From: a bacterium
GTDB lineage: Bacteria; Electryoneota; Electryoneia; Electryoneales; Electryoneaceae
Assembly: GCA_963669175.1 (NCBI GenBank)
Contig: OY769902.1
Span: forward strand, 1,743,515-1,807,514
DNA length: 64,000 nt
Direction: 5' to 3'
The notes under the pieces were generated by a model. That model had not been told where the DNA came from, ran no database searches, and saw only the letters and a list, made by a program, of their open reading frames with translations. The position numbers were made by a program, and so were the translations under genes. Below are positions 817-53,654 of this stretch, one piece after another; positions within the stretch are counted from its first letter, which is position 1, and the number at the start of each line of letters is the position of its first letter.

Positions 817-3513
817 CTAGAACTTGTACGTATACATCACCGAGAAGATGTAGTCATTGCGCTTATAATACGTGGGCTGAGGGATGGAATAACCACCATT
901 GATAACGGTTTCTTCCGTCATGTCAAACTTCTGACCGTTCCAGTATTCCCACTGACCATTTTCGGAGATGCTGGTAACACTCAAGTAGCCGGTAATAATA
1001 TGGTTGGGATAAAATTCATAGTCGACACCGGCTGCAAAATCAATCTGCATCATATCCACAATCTGGTATTTGATCGTGCCAGCCCTCAGCGCGGCAGCTT
1101 CCAGTGGATCCGTCGTTGTAAGGCCTGGATCTGTTTGGTTGATCAGGCTTTCACCACTGCCAATCAGTAAACGCGGACTGAAATATGGGACCAGTTTGCG
1201 GTTCAAGAACAAGAACTCAATCCTCGGCGAGAAAGTGAAGTAGTTGATGTCAGTCTCGCCGTTGCTTGCGGTCTGTTTGGCATTGGAAATCGCCAGTATA
1301 GTACGATATGGTCCGGGATACTCTGTTCCAACCTGGAATGCAAGAACAAACTGGTCGGCATCACTATCCGCCTGGTACTCATTGCTGCGATTGGACGTTA
1401 TCACGTTCAGTGAAAGCTGATGGTCAAGGTTACCGGTCTGGAGCCTGTAGGCGGCGCCAACATTGATCAGATTGTTGGTCAACGATTGACGTGTGTCAAT
1501 AATCGTCGCGGAATCAATCGGCGCATTATCGTAGGGGAAAATGGCCGTTGAATCACCATCATTTTCAAAAAGCTGGTGCCGGTAGGTCACGTTGAAATCG
1601 GGATACCGTGGATCGGTGTACAAATTCACCCCTACCATGATCTCGTTGCGATCAAGCGTCAAATCACTCTTGTCGTTCACATTGTTCTGGTAGTGAGAAT
1701 ACCCAAGGTTCAGGTACAACTTGCTGTTGAGCATGCGAATCCGGTCACGGACGTAATATCCTGCTTCGTCGTTGTACATGGAAGGATTACCCAGCGTAAT
1801 GTAGCTGGTGTTAATCTTCCTGTAGCCGATGCGCAAGTCGTTGAACAGGTAGCGTAGTCTCAGCTTGGTGTCGTAGGAAAGAGAATTGGCTATGATGGAC
1901 TTGGCAACGTCTTCAGCCTTGATCGTCGAACCTGTGCTGTCCTCAGACAGCCCATCGTCCGGCAAAGGCTGGAAATACGAGTTGATCCAGATGATGTTTT
2001 TGTAGTTTTTCAATTCACTGAAGGCTTCTTCATACGTATTGTCGTTGTAAAGCGACATCGCAACGCTGGTTGACCATACGATTCGGCGCCGGTCAAAATT
2101 CATATCCAGGTTCAAACCTGACACCACGTTGTCTTTTGGCGTTGCGCCCGTATAGGTCGTGCGGGCGTATAAACTATCAAGATTTGTTATATAGGCCAGA
2201 TCACCAGCATCCGGAAGTCGATCCAGGTATACAGAGTTCCGAACGTCTACCACTTTCATTGCAGTATAGCCGAAATCGACACGGTCCTTGAATCCCAGGT
2301 TACTCGAGATTTTCACTGCGGACAGCATACGTCGGAATGTGCCGGTGTTATTAATGGTTCTTTGCACATTATAGGACGTGTCCGGGACCACATTGGAGCT
2401 GTCAATACTCATGGTCACCGTGCGCTGCTGATAACTGAGGCCGCTAACGTGGCGGTACATCTCGCCATAAACAGCATATACATTTATCGGGCCTGGTTTA
2501 ATGGCCAGCTCGATACCGCGCACCCGGCTGCCATAAAGAACCAGTTCATTGTACTTGGGGTTCACATCACCGACACGCAGCCGCCACCATGGCATACCCA
2601 TGGAGAACAGGAAACGATGTTGCGGCTGGAGGGAAGAATGTTCCTTGCTGGTAAAACGACCCCGCGCAACAGCGTTGAATTTTCCGGCTTTGAAGGTGAT
2701 GGAGAAGGCTTCATTGCCGTAACTTAATCCTTGTTCCGAATATTGGCTTGCCACACCTTCACCGCTGACAAAACCGGTGACATATTTTCTGTACCCGGCC
2801 CGGCTTTCACGTTCCGCTGGCGATACCATGTTAAAGAACCAGGTGCTTAACACCTCCCGACCAGAATCTGTCTGGTGGAACAGGTCAATCCTGTGTCTGC
2901 CGGGTGTCATATCACTAATGACAGCAGTAAGCACTTCAGCGCTGATCATGGCTTCACCGGTTCTATCCTTACCGTCTACGTGAAGAACGATCCGCTGCGG
3001 GTCGATTTGTCCGAGAGCGTTGTTAAAAGCCAGGGCGACCAGGACTTCACTTCCCATGATGGACTTGCCCTGTTCCGGACTGATGATCAGGATCTGGGTG
3101 TTGGTGACTTCGTCGCCGGTTCCCTGGATGGATACCAGAACCGGGTTTACATCACCATTGTCCGGGTACGTAATCGTTGTCCCGTCATTGAATTCCATGG
3201 CGATGTAGTATTCCATCCCCACAGAAACAACTTCTCTACCGGGAATTGCCGCGGAGTAGGTATTCCCCGCAAGGTCCATCTCCACGTAATCGTACGATTC
3301 TTGGTCAACATTTCGGTACCACAGGTAGGCTAGCGATACCTGGTTGACATCGTAATCACCGGCCACACGGGCTTCGACATTAATGGGACGTCCCATTTCG
3401 CCGAATGTAACGGGTGAATGTTCAATGTAAACAACAGCGTTTGTGCCGGCTAATGCCATAAATGGCAGACCAATCACGCAGGCAACAAGAAAAACACGGA
3501 GAGCATACTTCAT
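817..3513 (-). CDS. large outer-membrane beta-barrel protein with N-terminal soluble domains (function unknown)
   Basis: About 900 aa. Signal peptide MKYALRVFLVACVIGLPFMALA at the ATG at 3513 (track start 3567 is TTG). Alternating hydrophobic/aromatic pattern through the C-terminal two thirds, ending in aromatic ...YTYKF as in OM barrels. No TonB box or plug recognised. Last gene of a minus-strand cluster. Confidence 0.6.
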   Translation of the reverse strand: MKYALRVFLVACVIGLPFMALAGTNAVVYIEHSPVTFGEMGRPINVEARVAGDYDVNQVSLAYLWYRNVDQESYDYVEMDLAGNTYSAAIPGREVVSVGMEYYIAMEFNDGTTITYPDNGDVNPVLVSIQGTGDEVTNTQILIISPEQGKSIMGSEVLVALAFNNALGQIDPQRIVLHVDGKDRTGEAMISAEVLTAVISDMTPGRHRIDLFHQTDSGREVLSTWFFNMVSPAERESRAGYRKYVTGFVSGEGVASQYSEQGLSYGNEAFSITFKAGKFNAVARGRFTSKEHSSLQPQHRFLFSMGMPWWRLRVGDVNPKYNELVLYGSRVRGIELAIKPGPINVYAVYGEMYRHVSGLSYQQRTVTMSIDSSNVVPDTSYNVQRTINNTGTFRRMLSAVKISSNLGFKDRVDFGYTAMKVVDVRNSVYLDRLPDAGDLAYITNLDSLYARTTYTGATPKDNVVSGLNLDMNFDRRRIVWSTSVAMSLYNDNTYEEAFSELKNYKNIIWINSYFQPLPDDGLSEDSTGSTIKAEDVAKSIIANSLSYDTKLRLRYLFNDLRIGYRKINTSYITLGNPSMYNDEAGYYVRDRIRMLNSKLYLNLGYSHYQNNVNDKSDLTLDRNEIMVGVNLYTDPRYPDFNVTYRHQLFENDGDSTAIFPYDNAPIDSATIIDTRQSLTNNLINVGAAYRLQTGNLDHQLSLNVITSNRSNEYQADSDADQFVLAFQVGTEYPGPYRTILAISNAKQTASNGETDINYFTFSPRIEFLFLNRKLVPYFSPRLLIGSGESLINQTDPGLTTTDPLEAAALRAGTIKYQIVDMMQIDFAAGVDYEFYPNHIITGYLSVTSISENGQWEYWNGQKFDMTEETVINGGYSIPQPTYYKRNDYIFSVMYTYKF

Positions 3514-3689
3514 GCGGCGCCCCTGGTATAGTTCGTGGTTCCTTCCGGTCCCTCCCTCAGAATTCAAATGTAGAGTGTTGGCAGAAGCAACCTCAACATT
3601 ATCAGGAGACCCCGAACAGAAAATACAGCCCGCCGGCCTTGCCGGCGGGCTACAGGAAGTCCGTAAAACTCAACTTGGTTTACAACTGA

Positions 3690-4385
3690 TCAATCGGTCT
3701 GTTGGTATTGAATGATCAACGTCTTACGTTGCCCATTCTCGTCCTGAAGTTCGATTTCAATGTAGTCCGTCGAACCCTCATCGTTTACCTCGGGCACGGA
3801 GCCCTGATCGGCGCCTCCGGTTTCCATGTTGCCGTCCGGATCGACGGTTCCCATGAAACCAGGTCCGATTTCCGACTCCTGACCTGTCTGAATATTCAGC
3901 AGGCTTACGAGACCTTCCAGGGTGATCTGGAGAGTGGTGCCATCCGGTTCAACGATGACCCAGAACTGGGTGCCTTTGACCGACGCGACTGCGGTCGGGG
4001 TAGCCACTTCCATGGCGCCCTTCTGCTGGGCCACGTTTGCAAACAACTCACCCACTTCCATGTTGACACGTTTCGAAAGCGAATAGTCATCGTTACGTGT
4101 CGCAGTTACTGTAATTTCAGTATTGGGTCGAATTTTTATCTGGGTTTTGTCATCAGTAAATACCATGGATACGAAGCCGTCCGCACCGGTCCGCACCATG
4201 TGACCGTCGTCAAGGACTTCGCCGAAATTCAGCTTGGTCCAACCCTGACCACGGTTTACTTCAGTTTTGCCTTGAACGACGGTAACTACTGCAATCGCCT
4301 TGGCGCCATCCGCCATCGCACATACCGCAAGCAGGAATACCAGCAGAATGGCGAACGCTGCGGTTCCGAATCTATGCGTTCTCAT
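3690..4385 (-). CDS. FecR-domain protein, periplasmic (signal peptide, no anti-sigma N-domain)
   Basis: 231 aa. N-terminal signal peptide (AAFAILLVFLLAVCAMA). Beta-rich FecR-like core with GTQFWV motif. RBS AGGAGAAAG upstream of the ATG. The antisense ORF 3702..4472 is R/C/H-rich and implausible. Confidence 0.5.
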   Translation of the reverse strand: MRTHRFGTAAFAILLVFLLAVCAMADGAKAIAVVTVVQGKTEVNRGQGWTKLNFGEVLDDGHMVRTGADGFVSMVFTDDKTQIKIRPNTEITVTATRNDDYSLSKRVNMEVGELFANVAQQKGAMEVATPTAVASVKGTQFWVIVEPDGTTLQITLEGLVSLLNIQTGQESEIGPGFMGTVDPDGNMETGGADQGSVPEVNDEGSTDYIEIELQDENGQRKTLIIQYQQTD

Positions 4386-4406: not shown

Positions 4407-5606
4407 CTATTCCGCAATGATTACGTTTTCAACATCAAAACCTGCGCCGAGCATCAGGTTTGTCAGTTCTGAGATTGAACGTCCGCTGACCCCGCCGAAA
4501 GAGATGGTGGAAGGGGAATAGCCGGACAATTGGTTTACGATATACGCGTACTGTTCCGGTGAAAGTTTGTTGCTCAGAATATCCAGCAACTGATTCATCA
4601 TCGGATCCATGCCAGGCTCATTGCCTGCTGCACGATGACCACTACCACCCATACCAACAAAGGTAAACTCGCCTGGAGCGCTTCGGAACGTACGGAAGCC
4701 GCCGGGGATAACAGTCGGCGCCTGCATTTCAACCATCCAGGCATACCGTCTTCCCCTGATCAGCGGACTTTCACCCATTCCCGTACCGAGGAAGAAATGG
4801 TGATCGTACGTTTGAGGATGACCGGCAAACTTGGTCTGGCTGGCATCCTGTGAACGCTGCAAAATGACATCCATCGGGTCCATATTTTCCTGGCCGGGCT
4901 GGAACTCGACGATGTACAGCATAACCTGGTCCGGGGATACCGGTGCGCCGGTCCAGGTCCAGTTGAACTCCACAGTCGGTGATGTGATATCATCGTACGG
5001 CACGGGGTTCATGGGGATGGGGCGCGAAGGATTGTATACCTGGATCGTTGCCAGGTAATGACCATCCGGCGAGACCATGCCATTGAAATCACCAGGACGA
5101 AGTTCCACACCCAGCATATACACCGATGCCGCCAGGTTCAGACCATCAATAAGGTCTGCAAACTCAGCCGGGGATGCGGTCTGGCTGTGATCACCGTCCC
5201 TGCGCATAAAGGCAAGGTCGTTGCTCCACTGGTTGTTGTACAACCTGCCACCGGGTACGTTATCTGCCCACTGGCCAAGTGCAAACGGACGGCTGGCATA
5301 CTCAATGATTCTTCCGTGTCCGGCTACTTCAAGGTATACGTAGAGCACATAATCGTCATCGCGTTCTGCATCAGTGATTCCTGAGATCTGGATATACATG
5401 ATCGGTGGAATATCACCGAAATCCCAGTCTTCACCCTGCTCCAAAGCGTTCACATCAACAACGTCCCCAATCGGAAATATCTGGGGCGTTATGCCGTATT
5501 GAGCCTGCTGTGTGAAGCCGCTGGAGACGTAGAAGGCGTTTGCCTGTAACGGCAGGATCAACAAACCCGCCAGCACAAACAACCCACACAACTCTCTCCA
5601 CTTCAT
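4407..5606 (-). CDS. secreted hypothetical protein
   Basis: Signal peptide MKWRELCGLFVLAGLLILPLQANA starts at the ATG at 5606, preceded by AGGAGG. 21-bp gap to the downstream FecR-domain gene. No recognisable catalytic motif. Confidence 0.5.
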   Translation of the reverse strand: MKWRELCGLFVLAGLLILPLQANAFYVSSGFTQQAQYGITPQIFPIGDVVDVNALEQGEDWDFGDIPPIMYIQISGITDAERDDDYVLYVYLEVAGHGRIIEYASRPFALGQWADNVPGGRLYNNQWSNDLAFMRRDGDHSQTASPAEFADLIDGLNLAASVYMLGVELRPGDFNGMVSPDGHYLATIQVYNPSRPIPMNPVPYDDITSPTVEFNWTWTGAPVSPDQVMLYIVEFQPGQENMDPMDVILQRSQDASQTKFAGHPQTYDHHFFLGTGMGESPLIRGRRYAWMVEMQAPTVIPGGFRTFRSAPGEFTFVGMGGSGHRAAGNEPGMDPMMNQLLDILSNKLSPEQYAYIVNQLSGYSPSTISFGGVSGRSISELTNLMLGAGFDVENVIIAE

Positions 5607-5771: not shown

Positions 5772-6908
5772 TCAATTTTTTCTACGACCTGATCCTTTCT
5801 TTTTAACTCTATTTAAAAACTCTGATATGCCATGATCTTGATAATATTTCCATGCTTTTCGATATCCTTTGCCATAAGCCGGATCATCATTTTCTTCAAG
5901 CTGATCCAAATGATAGTCTGCGAGTTTACTGTGAATGGATTCCAGCATAATTCGCATGGCTACATTTGCCGAGCCTTCCCGCCAGTCGGCATGGCCGCCG
6001 TCCGCATCATTCTCGTGTTGCCAGACATGAAAAAGCTCATGTGCGGCAACACCGGATAACATATCACGCGGGAGACCATAAAGAAAATAGATTGTTGTAT
6101 CTTCACGAATAACTCTTCCATTCATTGTCTCCGAGTGAACCGAGTGCAGCCCATTGGCATCACCTTCGCCGCCATGCAATTCATGTAATTGATTTTTATC
6201 AACAAGGACGATGCTGATGTCATCCAGGCTGGTGTTGAATCGGATACCGTTGGCTTCCAGCACCGCAGCGGCTTCACGGACAATCTGAGCAGCCTTCCCG
6301 GCGTCGGTGACTTCCGTTTCACGGCAGACTTCACACTGAATACGTCCATCCGCCAATTTCCAGGCGTGTCCCGGCAGAGCAAAACGTCCGCAAGAATCAC
6401 ATAATTCAACCTGGTCCTTATACTCGGCGCTGATCGTGGTTCCCCACCAGTCCGTTACATAGGGACCGAGAATAGGCTGGCCGGTGATAGCGCAAATCGG
6501 GGCAAGGTTCTCTACATAACACGATTCATGATACACCTTGCCATCAATGGTGAAGTATTTGTCCGATACAGGTGCGCCACACCATTCACAACGCGGCGAG
6601 AACTCATGGTGATAACAATCGGGGTGATAAAATTTGCCCTTGTGTTCGATATAGCTGCCATCGATACGAAACCCGCAGGCGGCGCATTTGAAGCATTCCG
6701 GATGAAAGTATTTGCCATTGGCTTCGATGTACTGGCTGGTGATTACTTTACCGCATCCGGCACAGCGTACCCTCTGTGCCAGGGCATGGGTCGGTAATAC
6801 AATCAAGCCAACTGCAGCCGGTGTCACCACACGAACAAATCGCCTGCGATCCCACTTTTCGGCATCGGCTCGACATGTTCTCTCTGTGCTGTTCTTTTTG
6901 CAAGCCAT
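5772..6908 (-). CDS. LIM-type double zinc-finger protein fused to an HExxH zinc metallopeptidase (DA1-like architecture), Tat-like signal
   Basis: N-terminus has an RRRF twin-arginine-like motif followed by a hydrophobic stretch and ALA-Q. Then C-x2-C-x16-H-x2-C-x2-C-x2-C-x19-C-x2-H, which fits the LIM consensus, followed by a second C-x2-C-x16-H-x2-C unit and CDSC...CEVC. C-terminal region carries HELFH (HExxH). Confidence 0.6.
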   Translation of the reverse strand: MACKKNSTERTCRADAEKWDRRRFVRVVTPAAVGLIVLPTHALAQRVRCAGCGKVITSQYIEANGKYFHPECFKCAACGFRIDGSYIEHKGKFYHPDCYHHEFSPRCEWCGAPVSDKYFTIDGKVYHESCYVENLAPICAITGQPILGPYVTDWWGTTISAEYKDQVELCDSCGRFALPGHAWKLADGRIQCEVCRETEVTDAGKAAQIVREAAAVLEANGIRFNTSLDDISIVLVDKNQLHELHGGEGDANGLHSVHSETMNGRVIREDTTIYFLYGLPRDMLSGVAAHELFHVWQHENDADGGHADWREGSANVAMRIMLESIHSKLADYHLDQLEENDDPAYGKGYRKAWKYYQDHGISEFLNRVKKKGSGRRKN

Positions 6909-7019
6909 AATCTATTAATATACTCTAACCTGACTTCAGAAGAAAAGCGAGGTGATTTTCTCTCGACGAAGCTGTTGTAAAGGGAATAAGCAGTTCGCGA
7001 AAGTTCTTGTTGAGTGGAA

Positions 7020-7634
7020 AGCAATCAGCCTGCTTCAGCAGGCTCTTTTTAGCACCCGGCTGAAGCCCTGTCTCTTGCTCACATCTTCGTGTTTCTGCCA
7101 CCCCAGAGGGGGTGGTATATTTTAGTGTAGGGTTGACGCTGTCTGTTTAGCGTCTACCCTACGAAAAAGATCAAACCTTATCTCAACCCTGGAAGGGTTG
7201 CATAACGTATAATTTACACCCAATTGGTTTGTATAGAATATAAAATGCGTTATTTCCTGTATTTATTGAACGTACTAATATGAATCGCGTATTATGCAAC
7301 CCTTCCAGGGTTGATTATTCGTTAGAATACCTGACATAGTGTACAGGCCAAACAGACGGCCTGTACACTATGCTAAAATAGGGAATCCCGCCGGGATTCT
7401 AAAAATGCTATGTCCACAACTCTTTTACTGATACAGCTTTCAGAAGATGTGAGTAAGAGACAGGGCTTTAGCCGGGTGGATTAGTGTAACTAAATAAAAG
7501 AGCGCGCTTTAGCGTGCTTGCTTGAACAACAGATTGCTGTTTTGGAAAGCACCCTGAAGGGCGCTCGATATAGTTGTTATCTTTGTCCCCCGGCTAAAGC
7601 CGGGGGCTAAGGGGAGCAGGCTAAAGCCTGCTAA
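7020..7634. mobile_element. composite MITE-like element (repeat family A, long copy) with nested inverted repeats
   Basis: Termini agcctgcttcagcaggct-ctttttag-cacccggctgaagcc (left) and cccccggctaaagccggggg-ctaagggg-agcaggctaaagcctgct (right) are inverted relative to each other. The same termini bound the 210-bp copy at 40126..40336. An internal segment at 7497..7585 matches the reverse complement of 40195..40275. Further nested IR pairs at 7050-7095/7425-7475 and 7190-7215/7285-7310. Confidence 0.5.
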
Positions 7635-7855
7635 TACTAATGGATAGAACCCCCTTGAGGCGAATACTTATGGATAGAATTCCCTTGAGATAGTAAACGG
7701 AAAGAAGCGCTTTTCAGAAACTGTGATAGAAGACAGATGTTTCGGCGAGAATAACTTTCGCTAATCTGAAGCCGCAAGAACTTCCGAGAATACCATACGT
7801 GGAACATATCCATTGTGACACGGTACAAGTTTCAGGACGAAAACAGGCTGGATTC

Positions 7856-9808
7856 ATGCGTAACGATAGATATACATATTTGTTGATTATTTCCCTGCTG
7901 GCTTTCTCCTTTTTCCCACTGGAGAAATCAATAGCACAATCCCGCAATGTTGTGGTTCCTCGATCCCAGCAGACAGAAGAAATCCGTCAGGAAGCGACCA
8001 GGAAAAGCCGTACCGCTACCAGGCTTGAGCAAAGAGGGCAAATCGACGAGGCGTTGGCAATCTGGGATTTACTGGCGGACCAATTTCCCGACAACAGCTC
8101 CTATTTTGAAGGGCAGGTGCGTTGCCTGACCACGTTGGCCAGGTATAATGAAGCTGCAAGGTTACTGGAAGAGCGGATACCGCTGGAGATAGACCAGCGC
8201 CAGAAAGCGGAATACCTGGTGCGGCTTGGCGGGGTGTACCAGAAACTGAACAAACCGACCCAGGCCGAGGTCAATTACCGTCAGGCCGAGGAGACCGCTC
8301 GAGGGGTGGAAGGCGCTTATCATGCGGTGGCCATGGAGTTTCTGCGTCAACGTCAAACAGAGCGGGCGATTAGCATTTTAAAGTCTTCGCGAGTTGATCT
8401 CGAGAACCCCTATTTGCACGCGTTTACCATCGCATCCCTGAAACAGAATACCATGGACTGGGCCGGAGCGACCGAAGAATACCTGTTGGCGCTCCAGGAA
8501 AGCGGCACACGCAGGCAATCCGTCCTGCGGTCTTTTGCCACTTTCCCCAACGATCCGAATACGGATAAAGCTGTTGAGGCCAGCATTCGTGCGGAGCTGG
8601 ACCGTACCGAGAAGGAGCAGCCCTGGCCCGGGTATCGAGACGCTCTGTGGCAAATCCTGATCGATCAACGGATCAAGAGCGGCAATTTTGAAGGCGCTGT
8701 GGATCTGCTGGAAACAATCCAGGAGGAAGAGGGCGAAGAGGGCTGGCTGCTTCAGTTCGCCCAGACAGCCGTAGACGAAGGCGCGCACGATGCTGCCAGA
8801 CGTGCGCTGGAGATAGCAGCGCAACGCACGCAAAGTGAAAATCGACGCGCTGAAGTTGATCTTGCCCTGGCGACCCTGGTGCAAGCAGAAGGCGATTTCT
8901 CGCAGGCGGACAGTTTGTATGGCACTGTTATCGGAAGGCTGGAGAAGAATCCTACCCTGGCTTATTCAGCCCTGATCCGGCGTGGACAGATGCGATTGAC
9001 GTATGTCGATAATCCATTGGGGGCGTTGGAAGATTTCGAACACCTTGCCGAATTGCAGGGTAAGCAGGTGGAGCAACAGGTTGAGTACCTGCTGGCTGCC
9101 ACACTGCTTCGTCTGCACCGGTATGATGAAGCGCGTCCACATCTGCAACAGACGATTTCGCCCCAACTTCCTGACGAGCCTCAGCGCGGAAGAAGACGTC
9201 CAAGGCAACCGGTTGCCTACGATGCCGGACTGGGCGCTCATGCCGCGTATCTGAATGCACGGTTATCATGGTGGGAGAACAACCCGGAACGAACAACCGC
9301 TATCCTCGATAGCATGCTGAAGCATCCCACCGGCGCAGAAGTGGAAAACGAAGCGTTTGACCTGCTTTTCCTGCTGAGCAGTAAAGCGGATTCAAGTATT
9401 CTCCGTCGATTTGCACAAACAGACCAGGCATTGTTTGAACAACGAGTAGAAGATGCGGAGAACATGCTCGCGTCCATTGCTACGGACACCGCATCATCCT
9501 TGTCCGCAAACGCTTCCTGGTGGCTGGTGGAAATCGCTGTGCAGACCGGGGCGGAGGATGTCCCGGAAGTTGTTGACGCTTATGTCACGCAGTATCCGGG
9601 CACCCCGCGTGCAGAAGAGGCATGGCTGAACCTGGGAATCTGGTATGAGGATCAGGGCTTGACTGATGAAGCGAAAACCTGCTATGAAACGATACTTATC
9701 GACTATTATGACGGCCTGCTGACCTCGGAGGCACGATTGCGCCTGGATCAACTGGCGGGAATGGAACTGCCGCCCCTGCAACCACCTTCGCCTTTTGAGA
9801 CGCCGTAG
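7856..9808 (+). CDS. tetratricopeptide-repeat (TPR) protein with N-terminal signal/anchor
   Basis: ATG at 7856 gives MRNDRYTYLLIISLLAFSFFPLEKSIA (signal-like). The rest is alpha-helical with repeated A/L/Y/E-rich 34-residue periodicity typical of TPR arrays. Track start 7799 is GTG. Confidence 0.6.
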   Translation: MRNDRYTYLLIISLLAFSFFPLEKSIAQSRNVVVPRSQQTEEIRQEATRKSRTATRLEQRGQIDEALAIWDLLADQFPDNSSYFEGQVRCLTTLARYNEAARLLEERIPLEIDQRQKAEYLVRLGGVYQKLNKPTQAEVNYRQAEETARGVEGAYHAVAMEFLRQRQTERAISILKSSRVDLENPYLHAFTIASLKQNTMDWAGATEEYLLALQESGTRRQSVLRSFATFPNDPNTDKAVEASIRAELDRTEKEQPWPGYRDALWQILIDQRIKSGNFEGAVDLLETIQEEEGEEGWLLQFAQTAVDEGAHDAARRALEIAAQRTQSENRRAEVDLALATLVQAEGDFSQADSLYGTVIGRLEKNPTLAYSALIRRGQMRLTYVDNPLGALEDFEHLAELQGKQVEQQVEYLLAATLLRLHRYDEARPHLQQTISPQLPDEPQRGRRRPRQPVAYDAGLGAHAAYLNARLSWWENNPERTTAILDSMLKHPTGAEVENEAFDLLFLLSSKADSSILRRFAQTDQALFEQRVEDAENMLASIATDTASSLSANASWWLVEIAVQTGAEDVPEVVDAYVTQYPGTPRAEEAWLNLGIWYEDQGLTDEAKTCYETILIDYYDGLLTSEARLRLDQLAGMELPPLQPPSPFETP

Positions 9809-15452: not shown

Positions 15453-15591
15453 GGCGAAAACGTGACAGAACACGATTGGAGCAATCCCGGTTTTTGTTTG
15501 GAAAACACAGATTGATAAAATCTCTTGTTGTAAGCAGCAGCAACAGGTTGTAAACTATGTGTTCACATTGTACCCAGGGGAGGGGATTAGT

Positions 15592-16308
15592 ATGAACCTG
15601 TCAGACTTGCAGTCGCAACAACCTGTAATTACCCGTGAACAAGCGGAAGTTCAGATCAGGGCATTCATCAACAAGGTTTACGGCTGGATGGCGCTTGCCC
15701 TGATTCTGACGGGATTTGTCGCGTGGTGGGTGGCGAATGATTTGGCGCTGGCACGTTTTATCGCCAGCAACAACTTCATCTTTTACGGTTTGTTGATCGG
15801 CACTCTTCTGATGGTGGGCGCGTTGTCCGGTTGGGTTCACCGGATGTCGCCGGTTACCGCGATTGCTGTATTTATGGGCTATTCGGCGTTGAATGGCGTA
15901 CTATTGAGTTTCATCTTCCTCGTTTATACGAAAGAATCGATTGCCTCCACATTTTTTATTACCGCAGGCACTTTTGCCGTGATGAGCGTGTACGGGTTTG
16001 TCACCAAAACAGACCTCACCCGCATCGGAAACCTGTTGTTCATGGCCCTGCTTGGATTTCTACTTGCCAGCCTTGCCAATATCTTCTTCCACAGCGAAAC
16101 ATTGTACTGGGTGACTACCTATGCAGGTATCCTGATCTTTGTCGGTTTAGTGGCTTATGACACCCAACGGTTGAAGATGATGGCGTTGGGTACTGTCAAT
16201 GATGAAGACATGATGACCCGGGCATCGGTTATCGGTGCGTTGCGGCTGTACCTGGATTTCATTAATCTGTTCCTGTTGCTGCTTCGTATTTTCGGACGGC
16301 GGCGGTAG
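15592..16308 (+). CDS. Bax inhibitor-1/YccA (TMBIM) family membrane protein
   Basis: Seven hydrophobic segments. Conserved ...LVAYDTQRL... motif near the C-terminus. RBS GGGGAGGGG before the ATG at 15592. Confidence 0.8.
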   Translation: MNLSDLQSQQPVITREQAEVQIRAFINKVYGWMALALILTGFVAWWVANDLALARFIASNNFIFYGLLIGTLLMVGALSGWVHRMSPVTAIAVFMGYSALNGVLLSFIFLVYTKESIASTFFITAGTFAVMSVYGFVTKTDLTRIGNLLFMALLGFLLASLANIFFHSETLYWVTTYAGILIFVGLVAYDTQRLKMMALGTVNDEDMMTRASVIGALRLYLDFINLFLLLLRIFGRRR

Positions 16309-40065: not shown

Positions 40066-40125
40066 GATCCGCTCACCATCATCCTGTTCATATATGGTGG
40101 TTCTTCTGTTCCAGCTGATTCGAAT

Positions 40126-40336
40126 AGCAATCAGCCTGCTTCAGCAGGCTCTTCTTAGCACCCGGCTTCAGTCGGGGTGTTCATGGTGACAAAGAAATGA
40201 CGAGCGCCCTTCAGGGTGCTTTCCTGAATCAGGACTTGTACAAGGCAAGCACGCTAAAGCGCGCTCAGAATGATCTCCGCATCTTTACACCCCGGCTGAA
40301 GCCGGGTGCTAAAAAGAGCAGGCTAAAGCCTGCTAA
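40126..40336. mobile_element. MITE-like element (repeat family A, short copy) with terminal inverted repeats
   Basis: Left end agcctgcttcagcaggct-cttcttag-cacccggcttcagtcggggtg. Right end caccccggctgaagccgggtg-ctaaaaag-agcaggctaaagcctgct. Together these form a roughly 45-bp TIR around a 110-bp core. Termini match those of 7020..7634. Confidence 0.55.
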
Positions 40337-51416: not shown

Positions 51417-51695
51417 ATGCAGAAGGGATCGAGGGAAGAGATGGTCGTACTTGTTGAAGTGATGCCGAAAGAGGGAATCCTGGACCCCCAGGGCAAGGCG
51501 GTTGGGAATGCGCTGCGTCAGATGGGGTACGAGGAAGTGGGTGAGGTGAAGATCGGAAAAATCATTCGTCTGGAACTGGACGAGACCGATCCCGACAAAG
51601 CACGCGCCCGTGCAGAAGAGATGGGGCGGCAGCTCCTGGCCAATCCGAATGTGGAACGGTTCCGGGTAGTTTTCCCCGAGGAGGCAGTCGCGTGA
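51417..51695 (+). CDS. purS: phosphoribosylformylglycinamidine synthase subunit PurS
   Basis: About 85-aa protein with VEVMPKEGILDPQGKAV motif. Precedes purQ with a 4-nt overlap. Confidence 0.85.
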   Translation: MQKGSREEMVVLVEVMPKEGILDPQGKAVGNALRQMGYEEVGEVKIGKIIRLELDETDPDKARARAEEMGRQLLANPNVERFRVVFPEEAVA

Positions 51696-52384
51696 AATGG
51701 GGTGTAGTTGTATTTCCCGGGTCCAATTGTGACCATGATGCCTATTACGCTCTTCACGACATCCTTGGGCAGGATGTTCGTTATATCTGGCATACGGAAC
51801 GTGATCTCGATGGTCTGGATGGCGTGATGCTCCCCGGCGGTTTTGCTTATGGCGATTATCTCCGCGCCGGAGCCATCGCACGTTTCAGCCCGGCAATGGA
51901 TGAGCTGGTTAAATTTTCGGAAAAAGGCGGCACGGTTATCGGTGTTTGTAACGGTTTCCAGGTCTTGACCGAGCTGGGGTTGCTGCCCGGCGCGCTGGTG
52001 CGCAATACCGGTCTGCGGTTCATCTGCGAAGACCTGCCCCTGCGGGTGGAACATGCTGACAGCAGGTTCACCGCTACTTGCAAAGCCGGGGAAGTGCTGA
52101 ACATCCCGGTAGCGCACAATGAAGGCAATTACATGCTGGACGAAGCGGGGCTGGATGAACTGGAAGCGAACAAACAGGTTCTGTTCCGGTACTGTACCCG
52201 TGAAGGTGAAGTGACAAAAGAAGTGAATCCGAACGGATCAAGCCGTAATATCGCGGGTATCATGAATCGCCAGGGCAATGTGCTGGGGATGATGCCGCAC
52301 CCGGAACGCCGTGTTGATGCCGTTCTGGGGCATGTTGACGGCCGTAAGATATTCGAAAGTGTTCTCCAAAGCGTTGGGGGCTGA
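51692..52384 (+). CDS. purQ: phosphoribosylformylglycinamidine synthase subunit PurQ (glutaminase)
   Basis: MKWGVVVFPGSNCD start, class I amidotransferase with catalytic Cys in GVCNGFQ and C-terminal HPER. Confidence 0.9.
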   Translation: MKWGVVVFPGSNCDHDAYYALHDILGQDVRYIWHTERDLDGLDGVMLPGGFAYGDYLRAGAIARFSPAMDELVKFSEKGGTVIGVCNGFQVLTELGLLPGALVRNTGLRFICEDLPLRVEHADSRFTATCKAGEVLNIPVAHNEGNYMLDEAGLDELEANKQVLFRYCTREGEVTKEVNPNGSSRNIAGIMNRQGNVLGMMPHPERRVDAVLGHVDGRKIFESVLQSVGG

Positions 52385-53226
52385 TGAGCAGGAAAAAACC
52401 TGCCAGTGAGATGAATTTCCTGGATCACCTCGACGAGCTGCGAAGCGTCCTGATCAAGGCGCTGATCGGGCTCATGATCGGGGTGATTGTGTCTTACTTC
52501 TTTTCGCCCAGGATCCAGGACCTGTTGTTGCTGGCGTTCAAAACGCCGGAGAACATTCGTCTGTCCCTTTTGTATCCTACCGAAGGTTTCATGGTGCAAC
52601 TGAAAATCTCGCTGGTGGCGGGAATTTTCGTCGCTGCGCCCTGGATATTTTACCAGTTCTGGTCCTTTGTCGCCCCGGCGCTTTATGATAATGAAAAGCG
52701 CTGGATCGGGCCGACAGTATTCTTTACCAGCCTCTGCTTTATCACCGGCGCCGTGTTCGCCTGGTTTGTGCTGTTGTGGGCGACATCCTTCCTGATGGGA
52801 TTTGCTTCGGATGGTGGAAGCGTCACCCTGGGATGGGGCGGACATACCTTCCTTGAGTTCGGAACACCCGCAGTGGAAAATGTCTGGTCACTGGGCAAAA
52901 CGCTCGATTTCATCCTGCGCATGTTCCTCGCATTCGGGGTGATGTTTGAGCTGCCCGTCGCCATGTATTTCCTGGCACGGCTTGGGCTGGTGGACGCAAA
53001 GTTTCTGCGCACCTACCGTAAGCATGCCTATGTGCTGGTCTTGATCGCAGCAGCCATCATTACGCCCCCGGATGTCATTACCCAGATTGCGCTGGGGTTG
53101 CCCTTGTTCGGCCTCTATGAAATCAGCATCTATGTCGCCATGATCGGTTCCAGGCGGCACAAAAAAGCCATTGATTCGATGGGGCAGGATGAGGAAAGTA
53201 GCGCCAAGGCGGGAGGCGCCGCATGA
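52384..53226 (+). CDS. tatC: twin-arginine translocase subunit TatC
   Basis: Six TM helices. N-terminal LDHLDELR motif and conserved FxxAPWIFYQFWSF region. Confidence 0.9.
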   Translation: MSRKKPASEMNFLDHLDELRSVLIKALIGLMIGVIVSYFFSPRIQDLLLLAFKTPENIRLSLLYPTEGFMVQLKISLVAGIFVAAPWIFYQFWSFVAPALYDNEKRWIGPTVFFTSLCFITGAVFAWFVLLWATSFLMGFASDGGSVTLGWGGHTFLEFGTPAVENVWSLGKTLDFILRMFLAFGVMFELPVAMYFLARLGLVDAKFLRTYRKHAYVLVLIAAAIITPPDVITQIALGLPLFGLYEISIYVAMIGSRRHKKAIDSMGQDEESSAKAGGAA

Positions 53227-53654
53227 TGCCCGGCGGTGGTGAACTGATCCTGATCGCGTTTGTGATTCTGCTTCTGTTTGGAGGCAAGGAACTGCCGCGA
53301 GTGGCGCGTACCCTCGGCAAGTGGACCTCAATCTTTCGCCGCTCAATGAATGAAGTCCGCCGCGAGATCAACCGTATCGCGCTGGAAGATGAGCTGGCCG
53401 AAGCGAAAAAATCGTTCGGCGAACTCAATAAGGACTTGCGCGAAGAGCTGCACTTGGACCGTAAACTCTATGAACCACCCGAGTCACGCGAGGCCGGTGC
53501 ATCCGAGAAAAAAAAGACCGTATCACGTGATAATCCCTACGCAAAGCAGTCCGAAACATCCGGCATGATAAAGGACAGTGATGCCAAGCCGGACCAACCT
53601 GCCACGGATACCACTCCGAAACAAGGTGAAACCGAAACGGATGAACCCGGGTAA
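53223..53654 (+). CDS. tatA: twin-arginine translocase TatA/TatB-family protein
   Basis: N-terminal TM helix plus amphipathic helix (LILIAFVILLLFGGKELPRVARTLGK), charged C-terminal tail. Its 143-aa length is closer to TatB. Confidence 0.75.
   Translation: MMPGGGELILIAFVILLLFGGKELPRVARTLGKWTSIFRRSMNEVRREINRIALEDELAEAKKSFGELNKDLREELHLDRKLYEPPESREAGASEKKKTVSRDNPYAKQSETSGMIKDSDAKPDQPATDTTPKQGETETDEPG

Follow-up and report, generated by a model that had tools for sequence, protein, structure and literature searches.

What does a bacterium do with a protein that joins LIM-type zinc fingers to a C-terminal zinc peptidase, an architecture known from the plant DA1 family, and in which cellular compartment does such a protein act? 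The question is raised by a gene at positions 5772..6908 (minus strand) of a 64,000-nucleotide stretch of bacterial DNA, hereafter the window (contig OY769902.1, positions 1,743,515 to 1,807,514, of GenBank assembly GCA_963669175.1; Electryoneaceae). It is a real bacterial gene, comprising a complete open reading frame (ORF) with an ATG start, and according to the ORF list and Pfam its product of 378 amino acids (aa) consists of a leader, LIM fingers and a DA1-like zinc peptidase. Our analysis indicates that this product is probably a zinc endopeptidase that is exported and belongs to the bacterial LIM/DA1-like family. In plants, the size of organs and seeds is controlled by DA1 peptidases; for their bacterial relatives, no function is given in the literature we searched.

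Domain architecture and peptidase domain

An earlier note, made from the sequence of the window without database searches, had proposed a LIM domain followed by further CxxC units and a C-terminal HExxH peptidase, in the manner of DA1. Profile and structure comparisons bear this out. On the whole protein, both Pfam profiles pass their curated gathering cut-offs, LIM (PF00412) with 49 bits against 22.9 (E=7e-13) and DA1-like (PF12315) with 48.2 bits against 25 (E=1e-12). The C-terminal 180 residues alone reach 51.8 bits with the latter profile, the best single stretch covering only profile positions 164-211. An AlphaFold2 model of the 378-aa protein (predicted local distance difference test score, pLDDT, 90.6; predicted template modelling score, pTM, 0.78) matches both LIM and gluzincin structures, and the protein is colinear with a plant DA1-like protein, as detailed below. 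Segment-wise Pfam scans, combined with an alignment of 174 family homologues from which all conservation counts given here are taken, yield a domain map with a leader (residues 1-44), a LIM domain composed of fingers F1 and F2 (49-98), three further fingers, F3 (107-130), F4 (139-163) and F5 (170-195), and the peptidase domain (199-372). The additional CxxC units lie at residues 107, 170 and 192, and the HELFH motif occupies residues 290-294.

In the model, the DA1-like peptidase domain (5793..6314, minus strand) has a gluzincin fold with a thermolysin-like topology, including an HExxH helix and a glutamate on the following helix; at the sequence level, no similarity to any solved peptidase was detectable. 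The active-site motif H290-E-L-F-H294, read directly from the sequence (6027..6041, minus strand), is strongly conserved, with H290, E291 and H294 being invariant in all 174 homologues. The presumed third zinc ligand, E311 of the motif R-E-G-S-A-N (5976..5978, minus strand), which would complete an HExxH-x16-E arrangement, is a glutamate in 173 of the 174 proteins, and the next residue is a glycine equally often (173/174). Both HELFH and R-E311-G align with the plant motif HEMMH...EEG, the plant active site being given as AHEMMHA--EE (bioRxiv 10.1101/2022.06.21.497003). Judged by these residues, the gluzincin-type active site is intact, and the protein is predicted to have zinc endopeptidase activity. 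Compared with other gluzincins, such as the catalytic domain of M1 aminopeptidases, thermolysin and MATCAP, the domain is much smaller, and its putative substrate-binding accessory is the zinc-finger array.

The zinc-finger array

The canonical LIM domain (F1 and F2; 6615..6764, minus strand) had been recognized in the earlier note by the spacing C-x2-C-x16-H-x2-C-x2-C-x2-C-x19-C-x2-H. This pattern does match literally at residues 49-101, but its final ligand pair, C98 and H101, is misassigned. Alignment to the LIM domains of CRP1 and paxillin, together with conservation in the family, identifies H95 and C98 as the last pair, and the position of H101 is variable, being occupied by E, K, R or Q in homologues. 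The ligands are C49, C52, H69 and C72 in the first finger and C75, C78, H95 and C98 in the second, with a two-residue spacer between the fingers, in agreement with the LIM ligand pattern C-x2-C-x16-23-H-x2-C-x2-C-x2-C-x16-21-(C/H)-x2-(C/H/D). With the exception of H101, the proposed Cys/His ligands are conserved across the 174 homologues. When analyzed alone, residues 46-104 score 46.4 bits with the Pfam LIM profile and cover its full length (positions 1-58), and phmmer retrieves matches to the LIM domains of CRP1 and paxillin. The AlphaFold2 model contains the LIM fold, with its two treble-clef zinc knuckles, and matches solved structures of tandem LIM domains, so that the suspected fold of the knuckles is also found at the structural level. 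As is predicted per LIM domain, the module would bind two Zn2+ ions. Among eukaryotic LIM proteins, CRP1, paxillin, LMO4, Lhx3/4 and PINCH provide the closest points of comparison, from which the protein differs in that only F1 and F2 constitute a canonical LIM domain by profile.

The remaining fingers, F3 to F5, are connected by eight-residue linkers, and none of them is recognized as a full LIM domain by profile. F3 (6519..6590, minus strand) is a half-LIM finger that matches only positions 1-27 of the Pfam LIM profile, with 19.1 bits and thus under the cut-off; its ligands C107, C110, H127 and C130 are kept in 160-171 of the 174 homologues. F5 (6324..6401, minus strand), a C4 knuckle adjoining the peptidase domain, has four cysteines (C170, C173, C192 and C195) that are invariant in all homologues, and in the alignment with plant DA1 its counterpart is the final CxxC...CxxC unit of the plant LIM-like region. 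In plant DA1, mutating a LIM-like cysteine abolishes activity (PMC5322733).

F4 (6420..6494, minus strand) is degenerate by comparison with the 174 homologues. It retains C139 and carries T142, S160 and Y163 at the other ligand positions. In the family, by contrast, position 142 is a cysteine in 167 proteins, position 160 a histidine or cysteine in 168 and position 163 a histidine or cysteine in 164, and the pattern C-x2-C...(H/C)-x2-(H/C) is intact in about 96% of members. With three of four ligands gone, the F4 zinc site is, as far as its residues tell, lost in this protein. Within the LIM-like region of four CxxC/H pairs, the last unit (C170/C173...C192/C195) is thus intact, and only C139 is left of the preceding one. 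Despite the loss of its ligands, the F4 region is modeled with a pLDDT above 95. The decay, in which C-x2-C has changed to C-x2-S/T and the histidine is replaced, is confined to the closest relatives of the protein (P0001, P0002, P0003, P0005 and P0011). More broadly, the number of CxxC units ahead of the peptidase ranges from ~3 to 8 or more in the family (e.g. P0010, P0040, P0061 and P0149), and this wide variation in finger number suggests that half-LIM repeats may be easily gained and lost.

A large bacterial family related to plant DA1

The earlier note had regarded LIM as an essentially eukaryotic fold whose occurrence in a bacterium is remarkable. This view does not hold, because the family is large, one of its members already bears the name 'protein DA1', and bacterial homologues are cited in the plant literature (PMC5322733). 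A word-indexed search returned 38 relatives, nearly all of them bacterial metagenome proteins of 300-400 aa with both Pfam domains, one of which carries the NCBI name 'protein DA1 [Candidatus Electryonea clarkiae]'. With a HMMER profile, 11,196 representatives were retrieved at E<=0.001, of which 826 passed the stricter limit of E<=1e-30. The best 150 of these 826 have almost without exception the LIM plus DA1-like architecture and a length of about 300-420 aa, and we put the number of protein clusters (50% identity) from uncultured bacteria with this architecture at 150 or more. In a scan of GTDB species genomes, members were detected in the Electryoneota, Candidatus (Ca.) Hatepunaea, Calditrichota, Ignavibacteria/Melioribacter and Zixibacteria, with fewer in the Spirochaetales, Planctomycetota, Bacteroidales and Chloroflexi. 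Among named organisms, Ca. Electryonea (FCB group) is the nearest to the lineage studied here. In a 2011 paper by Burroughs, Iyer and Aravind, the abstract reportedly describes LIM domains that radiated in prokaryotes as partners of membrane-associated peptidases. A passage in Dong et al. (2017) states that DA1 is highly similar to Roseiflexus proteins with four CxxC/H pairs, citing Burroughs et al. (2011) (PMC5322733), and a survey of 2014, in which the family was described as specific to plants, had sampled only 249 bacterial genomes (PMC4007552). The combination of LIM and DA1-like domains in bacteria is, therefore, not new but characterizes a large, previously described and routinely annotated family. 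Our results do not overturn the current understanding, and their value lies in the correct placement of the protein rather than in a discovery. As far as we checked, the details not noted before are the candidate Tat (twin-arginine translocation) leader, the decayed fourth zinc site, the mixture of exported and cytoplasmic members and a clade-specific gene trio. In addition, the protein represents a clean bacterial member of the family, modelled with high confidence and with its domains clearly mapped.

The relationship to the plant proteins is extensive. A DA1-like protein from Shorea (P0037) is colinear with residues 64-372, with 25% identity over about 310 residues (E=2e-25). In the bacterial protein as in plant DA1 and DAR proteins, the LIM domain is followed by a LIM-like region with CxxC/H pairs and by an HExxH...EG zinc peptidase with a C-terminal YG-G-(F/Y)R motif, and both families match PF12315. 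However, plant DA1 has N-terminal ubiquitin-interaction motifs (UIMs) and is activated by mono-ubiquitylation, whereas the bacterial protein has no ubiquitin system to act with, gives no Pfam match for a UIM and has a secretion leader at its N-terminus. It further differs from plant DA1 in having one extra half-LIM finger and in the loss of ligands from the finger that corresponds to the third CxxC pair in plants. Moreover, plant DA1 is cytosolic or nuclear, whereas the bacterial protein is predicted to be extracytoplasmic. Given the lack of a UIM match and the presence of a secretion leader, its sequence identifies the protein as a homologue of the DA1 family and not as a functional equivalent of ubiquitin-activated DA1. 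As far as they are portrayed in PMC5322733, the prokaryotic LIM-peptidases of Burroughs et al. (2011), such as those of Roseiflexus, belong to the same family and likewise have LIM and LIM-like CxxC pairs before the peptidase; the present protein differs from them in its RRR leader, its lineage-specific gene trio and its origin from an uncultured lineage.

The leader and the export route

The N-terminal 44 residues (6777..6908, minus strand) form a predicted signal peptide, based on the hydropathy profile and the AxA rule. They comprise a long charged n-region, the h-region VVTPAAVGLIVLPTHALA and, as deduced from the AxA rule, a cleavage-type site between A-L-A and the following Q. In the AlphaFold2 model, residues 21-36 appear as a low-confidence helix that is detached from the fold. 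Within the family, signal-like hydrophobic N-termini, representing signal peptides or lipoboxes, are present in 125 of 174 members (about 72%), and eight are ambiguous. In the remaining 41 (about 24%), the first CxxC lies only a few residues from the start, and these proteins are presumably cytoplasmic. Lipobox-like sites of the form L-x-(G/A)-C occur in a distant subgroup (P0031, P0033-P0036). With their short h-regions, AxA-type sites and lipoboxes, the leaders look more like signals that are cleaved than like membrane anchors.

The leader contains the twin-arginine-like motif D20-R-R-R-F-V-R26 (6831..6851, minus strand; read from the sequence), which the earlier note had taken as a Tat-like signal. 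Among the 174 members, an RRR leader is found solely in this protein (D-RRR-FV-R) and in its 67%-identical relative P0002 (T-RRR-VI-R). Both motifs fit the consensus Z-R-R-x-Phi-Phi; their position at the boundary of the n- and h-regions, with reference to (S/T)-R-R-x-F-L-K, was judged by eye. Relative to 127 signal-bearing homologues, the distance from the start of the leader to the first finger is large in both proteins (48 residues, the 90th percentile; family median 31), and the hydrophobicity of the h-region is low, at the 17th percentile for the protein studied here and below the 1st for P0002. The consensus fit and the long, weakly hydrophobic leader thus speak for the proposed Tat signal; the outcome of the profile searches, which does not, is considered together with the alternatives below.

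As the earlier note had stated, tat genes are present in the same window. The tatC gene (52384..53226, plus strand; Pfam TatC, E=3e-65) is accompanied by a tatA/B-like gene (53223..53654, plus strand), recognized in its translation by the N-terminus GELILIAFVILLLFGGKELP and not profile-confirmed. The pair is arranged in the order tatC then tatA with a 4-bp overlap and directly follows purS-/purQ-like ORFs (51417-52384; assigned by eye from the translations). At a distance of about 46 kb from the peptidase gene, these genes tell us no more than that a Tat pathway exists in the organism. Taken together, the features of the leader make Tat export in this lineage plausible but unproven, with chances that we consider roughly even.

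Neighbouring genes

The peptidase gene is followed by two genes for apparently exported proteins. The first (4407..5606, minus strand) encodes a protein of 399 aa that belongs to no Pfam family and probably contains FN3/Ig-like beta-sandwich domains; it has only two database relatives, its model is poor (pLDDT 62), and the structural matches are generic FN3/Ig-like ones. The second (3690..4385, minus strand), the third gene of the trio, encodes a FecR-domain/DUF7354 protein of 231 aa (Pfam FecR, E=2e-12). Further downstream lies a gene for a ~900-aa protein (817..3567, minus strand) that belongs to no Pfam family, begins with a signal-like stretch and has ...YIFSVMYTYKF as its last residues. 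Outer-membrane beta-barrels typically carry an aromatic residue at the C-terminus, such as the F found here. A divergent gene upstream of the peptidase encodes a TPR protein (7799..9808). By the look of their translated N-termini, all four neighbouring genes encode proteins with signal-like leaders.

The earlier note had asked whether the neighbourhood recurs with homologues, and it does so in the three closest relatives. The trio, consisting of the peptidase, a protein of roughly 400 aa and the FecR protein, is found at L001, L002 and L003, with peptidase identities of 67, 50 and 47%, and the neighbour proteins are 31-63% identical among these relatives. In two of them, the ~900-aa gene is also kept downstream of the trio (63% and 40% identity). 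Strong GC-rich terminator-like hairpins on the minus strand follow the FecR gene (3624-3654; 14 pairs) and the ~900-aa gene (745-774; 13 pairs), and no comparable hairpin was found between the peptidase, 399-aa and FecR genes. Since all these proteins appear to have signal-like N-termini, a functional link of the peptidase with its neighbours, if there is any, lies in the cell envelope. A role in defence was also considered and was dropped, as neither the peptidase nor its four neighbours matched a PADLOC model.

Proposed function and alternative explanations

It is conceivable that the finger array serves as a rigid arm that binds an extended segment of a protein partner, as eukaryotic LIM domains bind extended peptides and plant DA1 needs its LIM-like region for activity; the solved structures that our model matches include LIM-peptide complexes such as LMO4-LDB1. 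An envelope protein bound by the arm would then be brought to the active site, where the peptidase would make a limited cut. The two exported proteins encoded just downstream, the 399-aa and the FecR-domain protein, would be the best substrate candidates, because the trio is kept in the three closest relatives. In this lineage, export may proceed via Tat, with zinc being loaded in the cytoplasm before transport, in line with what is generally known of Tat substrates. This route would let the four cysteine-rich zinc sites and the catalytic zinc site fold and load prior to export, whereas most relatives would rely on signals of the Sec or lipoprotein type and roughly one in four would stay in the cytoplasm. 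Tat-exported metalloproteins, such as MncA and the amidases AmiA and AmiC, would share this logic if the RR leader is functional, as they fold and acquire their metal in the cytoplasm and are then exported; they differ in that most LIM/DA1-like family members do not use Tat and its use by the present protein is a candidate feature. A more far-reaching version, which we regard as unlikely, holds that an Electryoneota-like lineage switched from Sec to Tat and that the peptidase is the protease of a new envelope module comprising the FN3-like 399-aa protein, the FecR protein, the nearby TPR protein and the large outer-membrane-like protein. If true, this reading of the peptidase as a Tat-exported part of an envelope module would place bacterial relatives of plant DA1 in a defined cellular context for the first time.

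Several observations weigh against our main proposal. The searched literature contains no functional study of any bacterial DA1-like protein, so that we can only infer substrate and role. Cysteine-rich zinc sites are chemically awkward in an oxidising periplasm. The trio is absent from relatives at 44% peptidase identity or less, where the neighbours are unrelated; a neighbourhood conserved family-wide was thus not found, and the trio is a clade-level association rather than a family property. As the trio does not extend beyond the closest clade, support for a dedicated partner system is weak. Moreover, its intergenic gaps measure 165-320 bp, and co-transcription is unproven. Finally, the rest of the family manages without Tat, indicating that this pathway is not needed for the fold to function outside the cytoplasm, and the Tat-signal profiles of NCBIfam and Pfam gave no match at E<=10 on the isolated leaders of the protein and of P0002, an outcome that the earlier note had named as refuting its reading, but a weak negative given that short Tat profiles are insensitive and that the HMMER filters drop most matches above about 0.1.

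The last two points bear on the most serious alternative, in which the same exported LIM/DA1-like peptidase is translocated unfolded by Sec or anchored in the membrane by its N-terminus, the RRR stretch being a mere charged n-region. We give this possibility considerable weight, somewhat short of an even chance. In addition to the missing profile match in either library, it is favoured by the fact that almost all other signal-bearing members have Sec-type or lipoprotein leaders without RR, and by the hydrophobicity of the h-region, with a Kyte-Doolittle mean of 2.48 over 12 residues. On the other hand, the RR motif agrees exactly with Z-R-R-x-Phi-Phi and is kept in P0002 while the preceding residues diverge, the leader stands out in the family by its length and low hydrophobicity, and arginines at +2 and +4 past the predicted cleavage site are generally known to disfavour Sec.

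Other explanations depart further from an exported peptidase. The protein could be cytoplasmic, with a wrongly annotated start or a hydrophobic N-terminus that does not act in targeting, and have cytoplasmic targets. The 41 homologues that begin directly at the first CxxC imply that the module can work in the cytoplasm, and zinc-cysteine fingers are typical of reducing compartments. However, there is no internal methionine before residue 263, the leader region is conserved in P0002, its n/h/c organization and A-L-A site are those commonly seen in signals that are cleaved, and the four neighbouring genes also appear to encode signal-like leaders, so that this explanation seems quite improbable to us. 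We assign a slightly lower probability still to a non-catalytic scaffold akin to DAR3, a plant family member described in a preprint (bioRxiv 10.1101/2022.06.21.497003) as an inhibitor of DA1 peptidases. While the decay of F4 in this lineage could be taken as a step in that direction, the degenerate site belongs to the finger array and not to the catalytic domain, whose residues H290, E291, H294 and E311 are intact and conserved across the homologues. Finally, contamination with eukaryotic DNA, or a DA1 gene recently acquired by the bacterium from a plant, might come to mind because LIM and DA1 are best known from eukaryotes and a plant DA1-like protein is a significant match, but such an origin is hardly credible here. 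The gene lies on a 5.4-Mb bacterial contig among tatC, dapB and purC, synteny is seen in three other metagenome-assembled genomes, and relatives occur across the Electryoneota, Calditrichota, Ignavibacteria, Zixibacteria, Chloroflexi, Planctomycetota and Spirochaetales; in addition, identity to plant DA1 is only 25%, and UIMs and introns are lacking.

An exported zinc peptidase of the LIM/DA1-like family is thus the explanation that we favour. At the level of the family, the export of most members, the cytoplasmic location predicted for about a quarter of them and the invariant finger next to the peptidase could guide experiments. For one lineage, the candidate Tat leader and the conserved neighbours, as possible substrates or partners, add further starting points.

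Intergenic sequences and other features of the window

The intergenic region between the peptidase gene and the divergent gene upstream of it (6909-7798) is long, with 890 bp compared to 155-182 bp in relatives, and has a GC content of 43%, as against 51% for the window. It contains two inverted repeats (7053-7088/7443-7478 and 7183-7205/7292-7314). Rfam and tRNA scans of the intergenic regions flanking the peptidase gene were empty. An element consisting of the hairpin AGCCTGCTTCAGCAGGCT, a T-run and then AGCACCCGGCT is common to this region and to the intergenic region 40108-40336 and looks like a repeat of the REP (repetitive extragenic palindromic) or MITE (miniature inverted-repeat transposable element) type. 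Elsewhere in the window, an ordinary membrane protein of the BAX-inhibitor-1 family is encoded at 15559-16308 on the plus strand (Pfam Bax1-I, E=1e-55).

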